Shown here in pieces: positions 21,709-62,515 of a stretch of DNA of 64,000 bases. The stretch comes from Escherichia phage vB_EcoM_FB, in sequence record MT682711.1. The stretch is one strand, 5' to 3'. Positions within the stretch are counted from its first letter, which is position 1; every line of letters begins with the position of its first letter. The notes under the pieces are model-generated. The model was given only the letters and a program-made list of their open reading frames with translations, was not told the origin of the DNA and did not search any database. The translations under genes and the position numbers were made by a program.

Positions 21709-22602
21709 TTAAAGGACCACGTCCTCATAACTTGGCATTTCGTGCTCAGAATGGATATGGGCACCGAAATAAATGAATTCAGCCAGACCAGGATGGAATA
21801 CTAAACCGGGATTCTCATGATAAATGATATGTGGTCTTGATTTCAGAATCTGATAATATTCAACCTTACTCGGTTTGAATTTAATAATCTCTACATCAGG
21901 ACGATAGTCTTCGCGCTTAAATGAATCGTTCGGGTCGGTGATGTAAAGACGAGCACCTTCAGCCGCAGCTTGGTCTACAACTCTTTCGAATTGATAGCAT
22001 TTATCTGAGATACGGAACGGATGGAAAATACCATCAATTTTAATAGGCGCTAGACCTTCAGAGTAACGCTCAATTACTGCAGGATTAATTACCTTTTGGT
22101 CTACAAAAATCTTATCAGAGGACGCACCTCGTGACACCAGGACGTCTTTCTGGCATTGATTCAGGACTGTAGTATAAATCGAACGTTCAACTGAAGACAC
22201 GTCGATATCAATGAACTCATCGATATAATAACGAGGAACTTCAGGGTCCATTGTAATGTTAAAGTTGAATTGTACAGTCTGGGTACCATCATAACCTGTG
22301 ATATCGGTTATTAATCCTGAGCAGTCATAGTATTCGATTAACGAATCAACAACGAACTCATTTTCAGACCAAAAATGTTTACGGGTTTCATAAGCATTTT
22401 CTTTATACCAAAGCGGTACAAAATTCAGTTCAGGAAACAATTCAATACATTCTTTGATATCGCTCGAATTTCTAGGATAAGCCAGATAATCACCTGGGCG
22501 AGCACGGTTTAAATGGGGTTGAAAATTACCGTCCTTAAGGACGGCATATTCACCTGTTTCGTAACTACGCATACTGAAAATAGGAACGATAAACAGACTC
22601 AT
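21709..22602 (-). CDS. hypothetical protein at the beta-gt position; candidate DNA sugar transferase
   Basis: 297 aa with no resemblance to T4 beta-glucosyltransferase as recalled; function assigned by position only. Confidence 0.4.
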   Translation of the reverse strand: MSLFIVPIFSMRSYETGEYAVLKDGNFQPHLNRARPGDYLAYPRNSSDIKECIELFPELNFVPLWYKENAYETRKHFWSENEFVVDSLIEYYDCSGLITDITGYDGTQTVQFNFNITMDPEVPRYYIDEFIDIDVSSVERSIYTTVLNQCQKDVLVSRGASSDKIFVDQKVINPAVIERYSEGLAPIKIDGIFHPFRISDKCYQFERVVDQAAAEGARLYITDPNDSFKREDYRPDVEIIKFKPSKVEYYQILKSRPHIIYHENPGLVFHPGLAEFIYFGAHIHSEHEMPSYEDVVL

Positions 22603-23297
22603 TTCAGGAATCCTCGAACGTAGTCAAAATCACGTTCAAACACGTGTGCACTAACCATAGTATGGGAATACGTACCCAGACCAACACCACACTGTTCAGC
22701 AATAAAGGCCATCAGTTTACCCTGCAGATAGAAATCCAGCTGCATAACGATAGCACAGTTCTGTGAACGCATATGAGTGTGTGCATACAGACGTCCATCA
22801 CGAATATAATATGTTACCGAATCGGTACATGGATATTCTAGGGATTCGTCAGAATCAAGGAGGGCTTGGTCTTGTTCTTGGAGAATCTGGAACACAACTC
22901 TTCGCGAGTTAGGCTTTTCTTTAAGCTCTTTAAGTAGGGCTGGGAGTTGGGCCACAATTCGAGGTCCATAGAAAGTGTTGAAGTTTGCAGGCAATACGTC
23001 ACTTTTCGGCTTATCAATGAACTTAGCAACATTAGGGTATTCCTTAAATGCTTCGGCGGCGTCAGTACCACCAGAAATCATAAATTTCCAAAAGGATTCG
23101 GCATAATCATAGTTGATACGATTAATACGAGGGTCGGTGAATTTATAGGTGCTTGCATCCAGTACTTCTACCGAAGCAGAACCAATTTCATAACAACGGC
23201 CGATACGGGAATCAACTGCAAACTGTGGAGCTTCCAGGATTTCTTCGTTCATTTGCTTAAACGCATTTTCAAAACTAACAGCGGTAATGTGTTTCAT
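22599..23297 (-). CDS. 42: dCMP hydroxymethylase (thymidylate synthase family)
   Basis: 232 aa; catalytic-Cys region PCTDSVTYYIRDGRL...HMRSQN resembles the T4 gp42 active-site region as recalled. Confidence 0.7.
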   Translation of the reverse strand: MKHITAVSFENAFKQMNEEILEAPQFAVDSRIGRCYEIGSASVEVLDASTYKFTDPRINRINYDYAESFWKFMISGGTDAAEAFKEYPNVAKFIDKPKSDVLPANFNTFYGPRIVAQLPALLKELKEKPNSRRVVFQILQEQDQALLDSDESLEYPCTDSVTYYIRDGRLYAHTHMRSQNCAIVMQLDFYLQGKLMAFIAEQCGVGLGTYSHTMVSAHVFERDFDYVRGFLK

Positions 23298-23830
23298 TTA
23301 TTCACCTTATTTTCAATATATTCATTCAGTCGTTTTAATTCTACCATATCAACATTAAGCAAATTATTATGGCCGTCGTGATTTAAGATTTTAAACACGT
23401 TTTCAAAACATGTTTCATACTGCCGGATAGTTAGGTTGAACTCATCTTTGGTTAATTTAATAAGGTCATCTTCGAAGTCTTCATCTAATGGATTACGGGT
23501 TAAAATAACCTCAATAATACTGAATTCAGATTTAAACCCTTTCCAATCTTCCAGTTCTACATAAGGGTCCATTTCACCACGAAGGAATCCCGAGTAAACA
23601 ATATTACTTGGATAACCACGGTCAAGGATGTAAACGAAATTAGGGTCTAAAAACTTATATAAGGTTTCGACTAAAGCCTTATCATTATCAGTCCCTATTG
23701 AAATGCACTTACCATTAATCTTTTTAGGAAAATCAATAAGACGATATTTCTTATCAGACAAAAGTGATTCAATTAAAGTAGACTTCCCGGAATTATCCGG
23801 GCCGTCGATAACAATGATTTTTGGTTTCAC
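23294..23830 (-). CDS. P-loop nucleotide kinase-like protein
   Basis: 178 aa; Walker A IDGPDNSGKST near N-terminus. Confidence 0.5.
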   Translation of the reverse strand: MKPKIIVIDGPDNSGKSTLIESLLSDKKYRLIDFPKKINGKCISIGTDNDKALVETLYKFLDPNFVYILDRGYPSNIVYSGFLRGEMDPYVELEDWKGFKSEFSIIEVILTRNPLDEDFEDDLIKLTKDEFNLTIRQYETCFENVFKILNHDGHNNLLNVDMVELKRLNEYIENKVNK

Positions 23831-24201
23831 GGATGATATGCCTTATAGGTTTCAAGAGTTCCTTCACGAACCATTTCTTTAAAGTGGTCAGGACGGATTG
23901 CTCGGTCATCGATGATAAAAGTATAACTCGGCTTATGTGTAAGCAGATTGTGATATTTCAATCCAATCTTTTCAAGGTTCTTAACTAATGCAGGAACTAC
24001 TTCAACCAAGATTCGACCTGGGCCGCATGAAGTCATACCACGGGCAGTGAACAAGGTAATCTCGTACCCTTCATCATAAAGCTTATTAATCATGGACACC
24101 ATTTCGGTGTCCGGTTTAAAGTTTTCGTAATCACGGTCATCTTGCCAGTGAGTAATGGTATTATCGATATCAAAACACAGATGCATTAAATTTTCTTCCA
24201 T
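23827..24201 (-). CDS. HAD-superfamily phosphatase
   Basis: 124 aa; motif I FDIDNT (DxDxT), Thr in FTAR, Lys in HKP, DD in FIIDDRA. Confidence 0.6.
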   Translation of the reverse strand: MEENLMHLCFDIDNTITHWQDDRDYENFKPDTEMVSMINKLYDEGYEITLFTARGMTSCGPGRILVEVVPALVKNLEKIGLKYHNLLTHKPSYTFIIDDRAIRPDHFKEMVREGTLETYKAYHP

Positions 24202-25859
24202 TGTTTGTGGAGTTCGGTAGAACCTGTAGGTTTATATTTTACACCAGTTTCCTGGTCAAGCAAAACCCACTTATCAGGACAACGAGTGATAATTTGAGCC
24301 GTGATAGGGTCACGAACTTCATCGACAAATTCACCTGTAATAAGCTTACGCTTACGAGGATGCCGCTTCAGCAGCACACTCAGTTGGTATAGACCGTTGT
24401 AATAAGCACCTAGAGCTTTCAGAGGATTATTCTTAAAGTAACCTGCCAGTGCCATCCAAATAACGGCAATCCAGAGCTTGTGCTTAAATGTACACATCGG
24501 AATATCATCTAAAGGCATAACCTTTTCAATATCAACGAATACACGAGTTCCGTTACGAGTTAAGCCACCCCATAGAGGGTCAGAGTTAAATTTGTCATAA
24601 CCATCGATAGAATAAAGCACCTTAGCTTCATCATAAATCGCAGGGCCTTTAGAACTATTACCAAAATAACCACGTGGGTCGATGATTTTAATATTACCTT
24701 CGTCCGACAACATAATATTACTGTAGTGCGGGTCGCCATGAATAAGTTGGTACGGTTCTTTATGTTCAGACAGAATTTCTAAGGCGTGACGAAGAAGTTT
24801 TTCTGGGTCGCCTACCTTGAAGTCGTTAACATGGGTAATACCCTGTGGAGCAAAGCCTTCAATCAATCCGGCAATAGAAGCATTACGAATAAGGACCTTG
24901 TCCAATACTTCTTTCTTAACATCAGAATACCATTGCTCATCGGACGGATTATCGATAGTTCCACCGAATGAACGTAATGCACTAATGACCTTATAAACCA
25001 TGAGTACTTTAGTTTCTTTAGACATAAACCGATAGGCATCTGCCATAGTACGACCAAAGATACGTTCCATTTTAATGAATTCACCTGGAGCAAAGTCTAC
25101 AATGCTCGGAACGAATTCAGAATCAATAGAATTATACCAATTGATTTCTTTAGATTGGATTTCTTTACCTAATTCGTTGGTAGGTACTTTAATAGCCAGA
25201 TTCTCAGTGAACTCTAATTTATTAAATTCACGGTTAATTTCGGATTCTTCATGGGCCTTAGCCAGTTTCAATTTGTCACCGACATCAACTACAAAGTCCA
25301 GCTTACGTTCAGTCAAATAGACCATTGAATCCAGGTTATCAGCAAGGTCTTCACCATAATTAGAACGGTCGAAACCTGTCCAATTAGCCACCTGATACAA
25401 GCCAACTACGCCACCACCGGTACCAATTTCACGCAAGTACGGTTCTTCAAATGTAAAACGACAGTCAGTCCCATAGGTATAACAGTAGTCGTTATCCCAC
25501 TCAACTTTATGACCTTCAGGAATAATATCACACCAGTTAAACAAGACATTGTGCCCAATGATATCTTCGGCAATGCAATCGATAGCATGAGCCGAACCAT
25601 TGGCAACATCAACGTTACGAATAGTGAATTTAGGCTTATCACTATTAATCATGTTAATGGATTTAATATAGCCTTTAACGAGGTCGTTAAATTTGCTGTG
25701 AATAACCAGAATAATTTCATCTGATTGATTACTATACAAATCATACAAATGTTTTAATACAGTATGTTGTTTGTAGTTAACCAGTACCTTCGGGATTTCG
25801 TTGGTAATTGGATACAACCGTGAGCCAAGACCCGCGCCTAAAATAACAACCTTTTTCAT
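24186..25859 (-). CDS. bifunctional sugar kinase / sugar-1-phosphate nucleotidyltransferase
   Basis: N-terminal ILGAGLGSRL...PK.L nucleotidyltransferase signature; C-terminal HGDPHYSNIM and IIDPRGY kinase motifs (APH/choline-kinase type); start moved to ATG at 25859 (MKKVVILGAG) with GAGGAA SD. Confidence 0.6.
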   Translation of the reverse strand: MKKVVILGAGLGSRLYPITNEIPKVLVNYKQHTVLKHLYDLYSNQSDEIILVIHSKFNDLVKGYIKSINMINSDKPKFTIRNVDVANGSAHAIDCIAEDIIGHNVLFNWCDIIPEGHKVEWDNDYCYTYGTDCRFTFEEPYLREIGTGGGVVGLYQVANWTGFDRSNYGEDLADNLDSMVYLTERKLDFVVDVGDKLKLAKAHEESEINREFNKLEFTENLAIKVPTNELGKEIQSKEINWYNSIDSEFVPSIVDFAPGEFIKMERIFGRTMADAYRFMSKETKVLMVYKVISALRSFGGTIDNPSDEQWYSDVKKEVLDKVLIRNASIAGLIEGFAPQGITHVNDFKVGDPEKLLRHALEILSEHKEPYQLIHGDPHYSNIMLSDEGNIKIIDPRGYFGNSSKGPAIYDEAKVLYSIDGYDKFNSDPLWGGLTRNGTRVFVDIEKVMPLDDIPMCTFKHKLWIAVIWMALAGYFKNNPLKALGAYYNGLYQLSVLLKRHPRKRKLITGEFVDEVRDPITAQIITRCPDKWVLLDQETGVKYKPTGSTELHKQWKKI

Positions 25860-25919
25860 TATCTGTTCCTCAAGTGAATGTAGGTACATTATACACTATT
25901 TTTAATAAATTGGTATTGC

Positions 25920-26420
25920 TTAAATCTTATCTTTACCGATTTCAATACACTGTTCTATTGCCGCTGGTGCTTTGGTCTTGAGCTTATCGATTTGTTTCTT
26001 ATAATCACGAGCTTTACCGAAGCTCTCGGTTTCGAGCATTTCGTAATAACGAGCCTCGTGGATGGAAATCTGTAGATTGATATGGTTTACGCACATCGCA
26101 TACAGTTTCTGCTTTTTGTACAAATCATCTTGACGCTTCATTTCTGCCTGGTGTTTGGCTAGTACCGCTTCACGCTTGGACTCTTGTTCACGTTGGAATT
26201 CGATTTCTTGTTGAGCATATTTTGCACAGTTATTACCGCATTGATTATTAGCTCGGGTGTACACAAGTCCAGAACCTGCACGGAATTTCATTTCGCCATC
26301 GAATTGTTTCTGTTCAGCTGCGATACGAGCTTTACCAACTTCATCGGCCGAAACTGTATCACCATATTGGACCGCGCAACCTGATAGGAGCATACTCATT
26401 GCGATAATTAACTTTTTCAT
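25920..26420 (-). CDS. putative lipoprotein
   Basis: 166 aa; signal peptide with lipobox LSGC. Confidence 0.55.
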   Translation of the reverse strand: MKKLIIAMSMLLSGCAVQYGDTVSADEVGKARIAAEQKQFDGEMKFRAGSGLVYTRANNQCGNNCAKYAQQEIEFQREQESKREAVLAKHQAEMKRQDDLYKKQKLYAMCVNHINLQISIHEARYYEMLETESFGKARDYKKQIDKLKTKAPAAIEQCIEIGKDKI

Positions 26421-56614: not shown

Positions 56615-57178
56615 TTAATATACCGCCTCAAACATCTTTTTAGATTTTAGGTAATTGGCCTTTTCTAGAACTTCCGAAGCATATTTACTACCTGCTTTGA
56701 AATTCCAGCCCGCATTATAAGAAGCAATCGCTTTTCTCAGGTCACCTTTGTGAACATTAATCCAATAAGACAGCTCAATGTAGGCCCAAGAGGCACTGTA
56801 CTGTCGGTTTTGGACCATACGAATTATTTCTTTATCTGACATCTTCCAACCTACCTGTTTAACACGACTTCTTAACGTAGGCAAGTAATTTTGGAACATG
56901 CCATAAGCATGGTGCTTATCTTTATTTAAACCTTGATTAATCCCAGCAGATGATTCCTGCCATAATAATCCAGCCATTATATATCCTAATCCTTTTTGAT
57001 TAGGGGTTTCTTTGAACTTTCCCGACTTTTGGTATTGTTCACCGAAAGCATACGCATAATGTAAATTATCTAGCTGGGTTTCTGTAAATACGGGTTCTGC
57101 TGCACTTACAGAAAACGAACCGCACATAATAGCCGCTATTAAAGAATATTTAAGTTTTTTTAGAAAAATCATAATCAA
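56615..57178 (-). CDS. secreted lytic transglycosylase-like protein
   Basis: 187 aa; signal peptide; LWQESS and AYGMFQ...YNAG SLT-type motifs. Confidence 0.5.
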   Translation of the reverse strand: MIMIFLKKLKYSLIAAIMCGSFSVSAAEPVFTETQLDNLHYAYAFGEQYQKSGKFKETPNQKGLGYIMAGLLWQESSAGINQGLNKDKHHAYGMFQNYLPTLRSRVKQVGWKMSDKEIIRMVQNRQYSASWAYIELSYWINVHKGDLRKAIASYNAGWNFKAGSKYASEVLEKANYLKSKKMFEAVY

Positions 57179-57884
57179 TAAGTCCTCGGTAATCTACATT
57201 AGGGAAGCCATTCTTAATTGCGATTTTACTAAATCTTCCACACTTTGGTTTATTATTATCTACCCATAATTTATATAATTGTGAATACATTGGTTCACGC
57301 CATATAGGAGCCTTTCGCAAAGAGGCCTTTTTCCTTTCTATAGTTTCCTTAGAATTTTGTATGGCTTTAAATTTTTGTCTATTTTCAGGATTTTCAAAAT
57401 ACTTAACCCGTTTTTCAGACATTTTAGCTTTTACTTTTGGCGAATTTAAAATTTCTTTGAGCCGTTCTTTAGAGCCTTCCTTTTCAAAATATTTTATTAA
57501 AGCCTTTGAATGGGCCGCCCTATTTTCATTTTTAGAGAAGAATAAAATTTTATTAATAGATTGCAGTTTTGAAAATGATTCTTTAGCCAACTTATAATTT
57601 TCAGCATCTACAAAATAAGACCTTTGCTTTGAATTTGAAGTAGAGCTCATATTTAGCCAAGCAAAATTCAACCCGTAGTGGTTTGGATTAGCTTTGGCTA
57701 AATACATATGGGCTAAATAGTGTTCGTCAGCATAAAGCTCGACTAAATTGTCTTGGGTGTCAGGACCACCAACACAACTCGGTATTATATGGTGCTTTTC
57801 TGTATAGGCATCATTAGGTGTATCCCTAGATAAGGCAGCATTTATTATTTTATAGTAGTCATATGGATATTTTATAGTTTCCAT
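57150..57884 (-). mobile_element. free-standing HNH homing endonuclease gene
   Basis: 244 aa; EKHHIIPSCVGG...NLV.L...EHYLAH closely matches the plus-strand HNH gene at 33262; basic C-terminal region. Confidence 0.65.
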
Positions 57885-57891
57885 ACTATCC

Positions 57892-58350
57892 TCACAAGTA
57901 AATAACTTTCGTGCTGGTTTTACCTTCTAAACGTTTAGAGTTAACAAATGCCATACGACATTTAAGGGAATATCCTTTATCAGGATGTTTACGGTCTACT
58001 GTCATACCTAGCCATAAGGTTTTATCGGTAATTTCGAGACGCAATGGACGATACACTTTACCAGGGACAATTTCGGATTCTACATCAGGTAGAGGTTCCT
58101 GGATTAAAAATTCATGAATTTCTTTAACATGGTTATGGAGTTGCTTGAATAAAGCAAAAACGTATTTTTCGTCGATTTCACGTTGGATAGCACGGTCCAA
58201 CAAGTGATTAGAGTACTTAATAAAGAAGGCTGGGACTCCGCTCTTGATGGCGGCTTTTTTGATGGACGTATTCAGTTCACGGAATTCGGTTTCGAACTGA
58301 CGACGTAATTTATTGCGGCGGATGAATACTTCTGAATTAATTTCTGACAT
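57892..58350 (-). CDS. regB: RegB site-specific endoribonuclease
   Basis: 152 aa; EVFIRRNKLRR...HLLDRAIQREIDE...LEITD resembles T4 RegB as recalled. Confidence 0.85.
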   Translation of the reverse strand: MSEINSEVFIRRNKLRRQFETEFRELNTSIKKAAIKSGVPAFFIKYSNHLLDRAIQREIDEKYVFALFKQLHNHVKEIHEFLIQEPLPDVESEIVPGKVYRPLRLEITDKTLWLGMTVDRKHPDKGYSLKCRMAFVNSKRLEGKTSTKVIYL

Positions 58351-59927: not shown

Positions 59928-60087
59928 AGTAGTCTCTTAGTGGTGGGGCCATTCCTTGGCACATAATTCGTCCATGTATCCGTATGTAAACCCTTTACCG
60001 CACTTGGGCTCGACCTTATTACAGGTAGGGAAAGGTCCATCACTCAGAGGACGCGACGTTCATGAGGAGAGGGCCGGCTTGCCTTTA

Positions 60088-60387
60088 TTAGAAAGAACCA
60101 GAACCTCTAATTGTGTTCTGGCGACCTTTATTTTCTAATTCGGAGTGGTCGATTTCATATGCTTGTGCTACGCCAAAGGCCTTTTTAACTTTAGCTAAAG
60201 AACCTTTAGATGTAACAATATTAAAAGTATTACCTTTGGTAAAATCAACAAAATCGACTTGTACGCCCTGTTTACCGAGGCTTGCTACAATAGCATCAAC
60301 ATATTCTTGGTCTAAATTGCCTTGAACTCCAATTTGAAATGCTTTAGGAGCTTTGGCTTCTGTGATAAATTCTTGATAAGTTTTCAT
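60088..60387 (-). CDS. internal protein (IPII-like) with capsid targeting sequence
   Basis: 99 aa; N-terminal MKTYQEFITE|A resembles the T4 internal-protein capsid targeting sequence as recalled. Confidence 0.65.
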   Translation of the reverse strand: MKTYQEFITEAKAPKAFQIGVQGNLDQEYVDAIVASLGKQGVQVDFVDFTKGNTFNIVTSKGSLAKVKKAFGVAQAYEIDHSELENKGRQNTIRGSGSF

Positions 60388-60430
60388 TGTTATTCCTTAA
60401 GTTGATAGAAGTATTCTATCACGGATTTAA

Positions 60431-60847
60431 TTAAGCGTAAATAGCCTTGCCATAATGTTTGTACCAGGTAGGACGCTGTGCAATTTTTTCATCCAAACGG
60501 GTCTGAGATATAGCAATAGAAGCTTCGTGTGGAGTATAGTCACCACGGAATTCCTGAGGAATGTCACTAATGTCCTGGACAGTAGTATCCTTGATATTAA
60601 AACCACGTTTTAAACATTCGGCTATAAGCTCAATTTGTCGCTTACGTAAAAATTCAAGCTTATCGTAAAAGAATGTAACATGGCCTGTGCCAAGGATAAA
60701 AGTAGGACTGATTTTGAAATCACGGACACGTTTACCATTAGCAACATGCTTACGAACTGCACCGAAAACACGTGGTAATTCACGATATTCAGCCATTAAG
60801 TGTTGGTCAGCCAATTCAGATACTAAGGTAAGGTTGATACGAGTCAT
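60431..60847 (-). CDS. denV: endonuclease V (pyrimidine dimer DNA glycosylase)
   Basis: 138 aa; [29 protein letters not shown] resembles T4 DenV as recalled. Confidence 0.85.
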
Positions 60848-60865
60848 TTTTAATCTCCTGTAGTT

Positions 60866-60903
60866 GATAGGTCTATAGTATCATGACTACAGGAGATGTA
60901 AAC
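60866..60903 (-). promoter_or_regulatory. early promoter (GTTTAC, TACTAT) with perfect 10-nt anti-SD in spacer
   Basis: gtaaac 60898-60903; atagta 60875-60880; ctacaggaga (60887-60896) vs tctcctgtag (60854-60863). Confidence 0.6.
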
Positions 60904-60927
60904 AACTTTTATCAAGTATAGGCTTTA

Positions 60928-61524
60928 TTAATTACCACGGGCTGCATTAGCAACGGCGTAAGCGTACTGAATATTAGCGTCTTTAAACGTACCTTTAGAG
61001 GTATCTATCTCTGCCTTAAAGCCGCCTTTAACCATAACATCAGCAAATTCTTTACGGAAAGTCATTGCATCAAGACCTTTCCATGCGGATTTATGCTTGG
61101 CAAATTCAAGACCGGCGAAGTTAACTGCTTTAGCCAATTTATTATCAATAGTCCATTTACCTGCTTTAGGTACAAACACCGGGCCTTTCTGTTTAGAGAA
61201 CAGTTTTAAATTCCAGCGACGAAGGTCACCGTCAGCTTTAACAAAAGCTGCGTCCAAGTTACTAGCAACAACATCTTGGATATGGGCAAATTTAAGTCCA
61301 TCAGCTTCAATATTTAGGTCGTTACGCCAGCGAAGTCCTTCCCAGGCGAAAGCTTTAAAGTCGGAAGCTTTTGTAGCCAAGTACCGTTCAATAGGAGCTG
61401 TTTTAGCGTCAAAACCGTTTCCTGGGTTGTCAACGCCGTTTCCTTTGTAAGTCCACTCATCTTTATTAATGCCTTGGACCTTTCCTACAGAAGCTTCGGC
61501 GATAAATTCTTTATACGTTTTCAT
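60928..61524 (-). CDS. internal protein (IPIII-like) with capsid targeting sequence
   Basis: 198 aa; MKTYKEFIAE|A N-terminus. Confidence 0.65.
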   Translation of the reverse strand: MKTYKEFIAEASVGKVQGINKDEWTYKGNGVDNPGNGFDAKTAPIERYLATKASDFKAFAWEGLRWRNDLNIEADGLKFAHIQDVVASNLDAAFVKADGDLRRWNLKLFSKQKGPVFVPKAGKWTIDNKLAKAVNFAGLEFAKHKSAWKGLDAMTFRKEFADVMVKGGFKAEIDTSKGTFKDANIQYAYAVANAARGN

Positions 61525-61573
61525 ACGGGTTCCTTAAAGGTAAATATTTTAATTGGTCTGTTCAAGTAACTGT

Positions 61574-61606
61574 AGATATACTATCACAATTCTAGGAGAT
61601 GTAAAC
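61574..61606 (-). promoter_or_regulatory. early promoter (GTTTAC, TAGTAT)
   Basis: gtaaac 61601-61606; atacta 61578-61583. Confidence 0.5.
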
Positions 61607-62005
61607 TTATTTATGGGTCTTCATCCAATTCTTGAACAAAGCCGCGACGTCTTTCTCTTTAACGTTCAGTTTAATGTCCAACATTTTACCACCCGCTGCT
61701 CTGGTTTGGCGAATCTTAGCAGTACCGGTTTCGCCATTCCACTCAACATAATACTGTCCAGTGTTCATTGCAATACCATCACCGTAGTCTTCATTTTTAG
61801 AAGTGGTGAATGCTAGCTTCATAGTCTTAGATACACGAGCCTGCATGCCTGTCTGAAGGGCATTACGAACGCGAATAACCTGAGGAGTGGCCTGGGTCAA
61901 GTTCTCATTCAGTTCTTCAGTGAACTCTTCAGATTCAAACATCGCCAAAAGTTCTTTAGATGCAGGAATTACATTCTCTGCGATAAATTCATTATAAGTT
62001 TTCAT
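61607..62005 (-). CDS. internal protein with capsid targeting sequence
   Basis: 132 aa; [10 protein letters not shown]|N N-terminus; butt-joined to lysozyme gene. Confidence 0.6.
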
Positions 62006-62486
62006 ATGCTTTCCAAGTACCTGTTTTAAATGTTGAAATCACGCGCTTAGCACGATTAGGAGTTTGTTTATACCAACGGGATTGAGCCAGGTTAACTGCC
62101 GCATCGTTCCAACGTTTCTGTTGGAGCATACGTAAAGAGTTAGTGAACCCTGCTACGCCTGCTTCACCCATTTGGAAGACCATGTTAATTAAAGCACAAC
62201 GACGAACTTCGTCCAGTACATCATAAACAGGTTTCAATTTAGGATTACGCAGAATAGCTCTACGAGCATTTTCAACCGATCGATTAAAGAGTTGCTCGGC
62301 TTCAGCCATAGTAATACGACCATTACAAACTCGACCCATAAGCTTATCAAGTTCAGCGCGAGCAACGTCTTTAGATGGGTTCTTGGTAATCAACTGACCA
62401 ATGCCAATAGTCCAATAACCTTCGGTGTCTTTATAAAGATTTAAATCAAGACCTTCGTCTTGACGTAACATATCAAAAATATCCAT
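61992..62486 (-). CDS. e: lysozyme (endolysin e)
   Basis: 164 aa; catalytic E and D in [25 protein letters not shown]; similar along its length to T4 lysozyme as recalled. Confidence 0.95.
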
Positions 62487-62507: not shown

Positions 62508-62515
62508 TATTTATA
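62508..62515 (-). promoter_or_regulatory. late promoter TATAAATA followed by anti-SD hairpin
   Basis: rc of tatttata at 62508-62515; tacctcc (62489-62495) / ggaggta (62503-62509) inverted repeat covers the SD. Confidence 0.65.

Follow-up and report, generated by a model that had tools for sequence, protein, structure and literature searches.

What does a T4-type phage do with several small genes that begin with nearly the same ten codons and then diverge completely? This question is raised by a locus of Escherichia phage vB_EcoM_FB (sequence record MT682711.1), of which a stretch of 64,000 nucleotides, referred to here as the window, was analysed. The source of the window is a Dhakavirus (JS98 group); the region of interest is 99.1% identical to Escherichia phage QL01 and 92–97% identical to other Dhakavirus phages. 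It contains three open reading frames (ORFs), all on the minus strand (Table 1), for proteins of 99, 198 and 132 aa, referred to below as the Ip7-like protein, the IPIII orthologue and IP132. The three genes lie within the interval from e to vs.8, which is the ipII/ipIII locus of T4, and denV is placed between the 198-aa and the 99-aa genes. By analogy with T4, we consider it likely that this is an ipII/ipIII-type hotspot of Dhakavirus, holding three small-basic-protein cassettes with a common ten-residue tag, and that the products are internal proteins, packaged and injected to block nucleases of modified DNA and encoded by cassettes that can be swapped.

The 99-aa protein starts with MKTYQEFITE and the 198-aa protein with MKTYKEFIAE. 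When the window was scanned in six frames, the N-terminus MKTY(Q/K/N)EFI(T/A)E was found in the three ORFs only. The 24-nt pattern ATGAAAACNTATNANGAATTTATC gave exactly three matches with zero mismatches; in dinucleotide-preserving shuffles it was not seen (0/100), and none is expected by chance. The tag-coding DNA has 87% pairwise identity across the first 30 coding nt and forms the top direct-repeat family (D1) of the region. T4 IPII and IPIII, translated from the T4 record, both start with MKTYQEFIAE, and the capsid targeting sequence MKT(Y/F)xEF(I)xE is present in all three ORFs. A motif scan placed the prohead-protease motif (L/I)-x-E at residues 8–10 of each protein, the junctions being ITE-A, IAE-A and IAE-N. 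From the presence of this motif, cleavage at the end of the tag is predicted for this phage, and packaging of the three proteins may be expected as well. The mature products of the Ip7-like protein, IPIII and IP132 would have 89, 188 and 122 aa and a pI of 9.0, 9.5 and 8.9, respectively, that is, they would be basic, as are the T4 internal proteins. In the 99%-identical QL01, a head maturation protease and scaffolding proteins are annotated at 101.5–103.7 kb, outside the window.

After residue 10, pairwise BLASTP detected no significant similarity among the three bodies. Profile–profile comparison of the three proteins gave a confident alignment at the N-terminus only, the bodies being non-homologous. 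The preliminary description of this DNA, which had reported three ORFs with a common start and unrelated bodies and had likened that start to the T4 internal-protein targeting sequence, is thus borne out on these points. Across 18 internal-protein genes the differences in the tag codons were mostly synonymous, and the upstream leaders had an average identity of only 40%, which argues for selection on the peptide. All IP132 homologues examined retain the tag, close variants included. In the Ip7 family alignment, M1, K2, T3, E6, F7, I8, T9 and E10 are invariant and the residues just after the tag vary.

QL01 carries three further tag-bearing ORFs outside the window (67948–68412, 70413–70685 and 70687–70911 in the coordinates of its record), and with these counted the tag-bearing genes number six per genome. 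Its ipI locus holds Ip9 and Ip8. At a third site, near the tRNA region, lies gp136, an unannotated 154-aa 'hypothetical protein' that begins with MKTYNEFLTE.

Pfam scans of the three tag-bearing proteins returned no match above threshold, and identification was made by other comparisons. The 198-aa protein is 87% identical to T4 IPIII over its full length (E 6e-128) and matched the PHROGs family phrog_5341, 'internal virion protein' (E 6.6e-115); on this similarity it is an IPIII orthologue. It has in common with T4 IPIII (Ip3), the inhibitor of ECOR17 GmrS1/GmrSD2 type IV restriction, the tag, the cleavage motif and the ipII/ipIII locus. Compared with T4 IPIII, it has 6 extra residues close to the N-terminus, in the GVDNPG region, and about 20 substitutions. 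Moreover, the DNA of its phage is probably arabinosylated, not glucosylated, and the cognate nuclease may differ. The orthologue most likely acts like T4 Ip3, and it is the only one of the three proteins with homology to an experimentally shown type IV restriction inhibitor. Alignment to T4 IPI, IPII and IPIII, as the preliminary description had proposed, gave one T4 orthologue, and beyond the tag none of the three bodies is related to IPI or IPII.

The 99-aa protein matched phrog_2667, 'internal head protein' (E 7e-43), and is 48% identical to T2 ip7. Its homologues occur in 283 phage records, the nearest being annotated as ip7 in VR5 and VR20, and its sole significant viral structure match was the 'Ip7 protein' of MX01. 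By these similarities it is a member of the known Ip7 family. Tag, body (at the above identity) and the ip7 or internal head protein annotation of the closest homologues link it to T2 ip7; the position differs, since the window gene lies between denV and vs.8 and T2 ip7 lies at the ipI locus by 57B. Some Dhakaviruses have a second copy, about 50% identical (WG01, and MX01, which has a second match besides the named Ip7 protein), and that of WG01 maps near the QL01 ipI-locus position. Identification of the 99-aa protein as IPII was rejected despite its like size, as its similarity to T4 IPII ends after 12 residues. T4 IPII (Ip2) shares with it the tag, the locus and approximately the size, but there is no ipII gene in the window, and neither of the small window proteins resembles IPII past the tag. 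Ip7-type internal proteins are reportedly named after Repoila et al. 1994. A literature search on Ip7 found nothing, and we know of no function for any Ip7.

IP132 matched phrog_15461, 'unknown function' (E 5e-91). Homologues were found in 49 phage records, every one among the matches listed being 'hypothetical'; there were 17 clusters among 5.8 billion proteins, and an exhaustive profile search with a hidden Markov model (HMM) gave 7 representatives. Identity across E. coli and Klebsiella phages is 80–97%. In an alignment of 11 sequences, no change is seen at M1, K2, T3, Y4, E6, F7, I8 and E10 even where body identity falls to about 50%, and residues 11–30 are the most variable part. Close variants of the tag are MKTYKEFLAE in the 99-aa homologue of Erwinia phage Cronus (P0039) and MKSFDQYIME in the metagenomic relative P0040. 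Neither BLASTP nor hhalign detected any similarity of the IP132 body to IPI, IPII, IPIII or Ip7 beyond the tag. These observations support the assignment of IP132 to a previously unannotated internal-protein family, a recognition that is new.

A further feature of IP132 is the sequence L32-N33-E34, followed by N35, which was found by the motif scan; the family alignment shows no variation at L32, E34 and N35. Residues 11–34, which end at this motif, are acidic (pI 4.0) and variable, and residues 35–132 form a stretch of 98 residues with a pI of 10.0. IP132 would probably lose the acidic segment by a second cut at L-N-E, and release of the 98-residue basic protein is predicted. Comparable (L)-x-E motifs precede the homologous domain in P0040 (VELTE-S) and Cronus (FLAE-S).

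The most conserved core of IP132 comprises residues ~73–97 (window ~61715–61789). Weak matches to it, in multiple stretches (E 4e-5 to 7e-5), were found in the repeated beta-hairpin units of P0042 and P0043, two large bacterial proteins of surface type. The resemblance is probably at the level of the motif only, and the two proteins were not accepted as homologues, the match being via the repeated beta-hairpin alone. P0040 is a 194-aa, two-domain relative in which an unrelated N-terminal domain and internal MTE and LTE motifs are followed by the IP132 core. Two internal-protein cassettes may have been fused in it, to be separated again by the prohead protease. The only significant match of the predicted IP132 structure in BFVD was a homologue.

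How these proteins may work can be proposed from T4. The tag would direct each protein into the prohead scaffolding core, and a gp21-type prohead protease would cut after Glu10, within the (I/L)-x-E motif. The mature proteins would remain in the head with the DNA and be injected together with it, so that their action would precede all phage gene expression. Most likely they would serve to block those host nucleases of type IV restriction (GmrSD- or McrBC-like) that attack modified DNA of phages, and the enzyme variant recognised would differ from body to body. For the Ip7-like protein and IP132, other targets of the same type are probable, and a role in type IV inhibition is our best guess.

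This proposal agrees with the literature. According to Rao and Black 2010 (PMC3012670), the internal proteins of T-even phages are defence proteins of diverse kinds that have only the tag in common, and the tag is sufficient for packaging. Infection of ECOR17 by T4 needs IPIII, which is also active in untagged form if produced inside the cell (PMC9391042). Silas et al. 2025 (PMC12373910) show that T4 Ip1, Ip2 and Ip3 differ in their targets, each of them blocking a GmrSD type IV restriction enzyme of its own; at least 10 Ips have been reported, and the two Ip loci are suggested to be hotspots for inhibitors of this type. McrBC is inhibited by a further protein with the tag, Bas37_0260 (bioRxiv 10.1101/2025.11.20.689424). 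That the diverged bodies may target different host defences, as suggested in the preliminary description, is therefore the published model (PMC3012670, PMC12373910).

For IP132 and the Ip7-like protein, the functional paradigm is T4 IPI* (Pfam PF11634), the inhibitor of GmrSD from E. coli CT596. Like IPI*, the two would be small basic injected proteins freed from a targeting leader by the prohead protease. There is no homology of the bodies by BLASTP or hhalign, however, and the start of T4 IPI, MKTFKEFTSTTTPVSTITE, is a leader of 19 residues, not 10. Shared GDG and ALFK strings noticed by eye had made IP132 or the Ip7-like protein candidates for a distant relative of IPI*; this was rejected when hhalign aligned the tag only.

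The modification of the phage DNA bears on the choice of target. The window has an RB69-type cytosine-arabinosylation gene cluster at 21709–26420 (minus strand), and no annotated alpha- or beta-glucosyltransferase was found in the region examined of QL01. The cluster is also carried by the IP132-carrying Klebsiella phages. Dhakaviruses and Marfaviruses are among the lineages predicted in a 2026 paper to make arabinosyl-5-hydroxycytosine (PMC13326640). The DNA of the phage studied here probably contains arabinosyl-5-hydroxycytosine rather than glucosyl-hydroxymethylcytosine.

Several points weigh against the proposed explanation. With DNA that is probably arabinosylated, the known T4 GmrSD targets may not apply, and the nucleases to be evaded may differ. 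By BLASTP and profile comparison, the IP132 and Ip7-like bodies lack homology to any experimentally characterised inhibitor. The predicted fold of the Ip7-like protein is generic ferredoxin-like and uninformative on function, and the AlphaFold2 model of IP132 was of low confidence (mean pLDDT 54, from the 11-sequence alignment) and was not used for inference. IP132 has Asn, not Ala, after Glu10 and has no canonical Shine-Dalgarno sequence of its own. A literature search yielded neither a virion proteome nor N-terminal sequence data from phages of this group, nor a proteome of a phage that encodes IP132 or this Ip7-like protein. In the available passages of a T4-like proteome of Klebsiella ValerieMcCarty phages, which concern IPII peptides, no matches to IP132 or Ip7 query peptides were present, a result that is uninformative here. 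Finally, the promoter-like sites in the region numbered 6, compared with 6.9 expected from shuffled sequence. Because this count is not above that of shuffled sequence, the early-promoter calls of Table 1 rest on position and conservation.

Other explanations were weighed against the same evidence. The Ip7-like protein and IP132 could be packaged and injected and yet act on something other than type IV restriction, such as another defence system or sensor, the host RNA polymerase or nucleoid, or the exclusion of competing phages. We regard this as rather unlikely: all function-tested tag-bearing proteins of these loci (Ip1, Ip2, Ip3 and Bas37_0260) inhibit type IV restriction enzymes, and the argument of Silas et al. 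(PMC12373910) for hotspots of type IV inhibitors applies to both Ip loci. A more general proposal is that internal proteins serve mainly as counter-ions or condensing agents for the packaged DNA, their diversity being neutral drift of dispensable basic proteins. The basic character of all three mature proteins would fit, as would the nuclear magnetic resonance (NMR) work summarised in PMC3012670, in which internal-protein lysines contact DNA phosphates. Drift is nevertheless disfavoured, because the bodies are non-homologous and yet well conserved within each family (IPIII 87% from T4 to Dhakavirus; IP132 80–97%). The specific anti-restriction phenotypes of T4 Ip1–3 (PMC12373910) and the rescue by T4 IPIII without packaging (PMC9391042) also speak against this proposal, which we consider improbable.

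The shared N-terminus might, on the other hand, be a recombination or translation-initiation module, with IP132 translationally coupled to lysozyme and remaining cytoplasmic and unpackaged. In some genes the repeat does continue into the leader, cassettes could plausibly be moved by recombination between repeats of this kind, and IP132 overlaps e and is without a promoter of its own. But the tag is conserved as a peptide while its synonymous codons vary (ACT/ACG/ACC/ACA, TAT/TAC, ATC/ATT), it persists in homologues with unrelated leaders (Cronus, Marfa), and the (I/L)-x-E cleavage motif is kept throughout. A module of this kind is, in our opinion, very improbable. Inhibition of nucleases by packaged and injected internal proteins remains the preferred explanation.

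Within that explanation, a more specific suggestion can be made for IP132, which we offer as a tentative one and think doubtful as a whole. It could be an injected anti-defence protein made as a two-stage precursor (tag, acidic propeptide and basic effector of ~98 aa), perhaps neutralising a nuclease or sensor that recognises arabinosyl-5-hydroxycytosine DNA. The T4-like lineages in which IP132 is seen, Dhakavirus and the Marfa-like Klebsiella phages, have the cytosine-arabinosylation cluster or reportedly have it; remoter, shorter versions occur in Erwinia and Serratia phages. To our knowledge, no phage inhibitor of nucleases or sensors recognising such DNA has been described.

The phenomenon is well known, and in near-identical genomes two of the three genes already carry an internal-protein annotation. 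The novelty is modest and consists of the IP132 family with its probable second processing site, the documented cassette rearrangements around denV and the tentative link to arabinosylated DNA. The established picture of internal proteins is unchanged by these results. Because they act before any phage gene is expressed, internal proteins help set host range, a point of relevance to those Dhakavirus and Klebsiella T4-like phages that are considered for therapy. IP132 adds one family to a catalogue whose tested members all inhibit type IV restriction enzymes, and it may be of use as a probe for nucleases directed against arabinosylated phage DNA.

Table 1. Coordinates in the window of the genes, repeats and putative control elements discussed in the text
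Feature	Coordinates	Strand	Basis or remark
e (lysozyme), upstream boundary of locus	61992..62486	-	Pfam Phage_lysozyme, E 1e-12
IP132, 132 aa, unannotated family phrog_15461	61607..62005	-	ORF and PHROGs match
ipIII orthologue, 198 aa	60928..61524	-	87% to T4 IPIII; phrog_5341
denV (endonuclease V), non-cassette gene within array	60431..60847	-	Pfam Pyr_excise, E 1.3e-14; denV in QL01, JS10 and T4
Ip7-family internal head protein, 99 aa, inserted between denV and vs.8	60088..60387	-	phrog_2667; T2 ip7
Tag-coding repeat copy 1, IP132 codons 1-10	61976..62005	-	D1 repeat, pattern match
Tag-coding repeat copy 2, ipIII codons 1-10	61495..61524	-	D1 repeat, pattern match
Tag-coding repeat copy 3, Ip7-like gene codons 1-10	60358..60387	-	D1 repeat, pattern match
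Predicted second prohead-protease site, IP132 codons 32-34 (L-N-E), N35 next	61904..61912	-	motif scan, family conservation
T4-type late promoter motif TATAAATA upstream of e	62508..62515	-	one of 5 window matches
Sigma-70-like early promoter, TTTACA-16 nt-TAGTAT, TG-extended, directly after IP132 stop, upstream of ipIII	61578..61605	-	same sequence after e in JS10 and T4
Sigma-70-like early promoter upstream of denV, TG-extended, 80% repeat of ipIII promoter (D3)	60875..60902	-	kept in T4 and JS10
Inverted repeat I2, 17-nt arms, 88% complementary, 21-nt loop, over denV -10 element and Shine-Dalgarno; PeSL-like	60848..60902	-	repeat search
Sigma-70-like early promoter, TTTACG-17 nt-TAGAAT, TG-extended, upstream of Ip7-like gene	60413..60441	-	promoter scan
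567-aa NTP_transferase + APH kinase fusion	24186-25889	-	arabinosylation cluster; 42% identical to RB69 ORF052c/053c
Kinase-like ORF	23294-23830	-	arabinosylation cluster
Thymidylate-synthase homologue	22599-23297	-	arabinosylation cluster

Gene orders at the locus were compared in the direction of transcription. In T4 the order is nudE-e-ipIII-ipII-denV-vs.8, and in the window and QL01 it is nudE-e-IP132-ipIII-denV-IP99-vs.8, where IP99 is the Ip7-like gene. Here, unlike T4, denV therefore stands between tag-bearing genes, as had been noted in the preliminary description. JS10 has e-ipIII-IP132-denV-IP99, with IP132 in the slot of T4 ipII, and UGJNEcP3 has e-IP132-ipIII-ipII-denV-IP99, its ipII being 93% identical to that of T4. 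Klebsiella phage Marfa, which has an IPII homologue, shows e-IP132-ipII-denV-ipIII-Ip7-like, and Erwinia phage Cronus shows e, the 99-aa IP132 homologue and denV. The order in the window is thus one state of a locus that is variable in cassette content and order among close relatives, a further example of hotspot remodelling. Cassettes would be gained, lost and moved between intergenic slots, presumably via homologous recombination; the homology could come from the tag DNA common to the cassettes, from the conserved leader and from the early-promoter repeats. At both positions that IP132 occupies, in the window and in JS10, its stop codon is immediately followed by the -35 element (GTTTAC) of the next early promoter. 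This suggests exchange at these repeats, a mechanism that we infer.

The start of IP132 overlaps the 3' end of e by 14 nt (61992–62005), its ATG lying inside the last e codons, and no promoter of its own was found for IP132. The start codon is out of frame in the e terminus GCA TAT GAA AAC TTA TAA, which reads AYENL and stop. The same e/IP132 overlap is present in Marfa. In T4, the e terminus (TAT AAA AAT CTA TAA) resembles the start of the tag, and a terminus of the T4 type may have given the microhomology for the e/IP132 junction. The motif TATAAATA is not enriched, with 5 occurrences in the window compared with ~7 expected, and only its position upstream of e counts. Late transcription of e and IP132 would start from it and possibly read through to downstream genes.

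The putative early promoters of ipIII and denV are both conserved in JS10 and T4. We compared these elements with the promoter-early stem-loop (PeSL) cassettes of T4-type phages (Arbiol et al. 2010, PMC2839356). Three TG-extended promoter-like sites occupy the expected intergenic positions, two of them being 80% repeats of each other, and there is one clear stem-loop (I2). With these putative early promoters, one of which has a stem-loop, the locus would resemble PeSL cassettes; its cassette content and order likewise differ among close relatives. It differs in that the coding tag forms a second repeat (30 nt, ~87% identity) and in that a stem-loop is evident only upstream of denV; the shuffling proposed here comes from sequence comparison.

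Between the Ip7-like gene and vs.8 is a 160-nt stretch (59928–60087) with out-of-frame remnants of the T4 vs.8 N-terminus, PVIRSSPSAV and then MCxGMA in another frame. The start of vs.8 lies here about 40 codons later than in the T4 annotation, which reflects either decay beside the inserted cassette or over-extension of the T4 annotation. Farther along, a 244-aa ORF (57150–57884, minus strand) lies between regB (57892–58350) and vs.1 (56615–57178). It is absent from the 99%-identical QL01, where regB adjoins vs.1. An HNH-like segment seen by eye, EKHHIIP...DNLVELYADEHYLAH, for which there was no supporting Pfam match, suggests that this ORF codes for a homing endonuclease.

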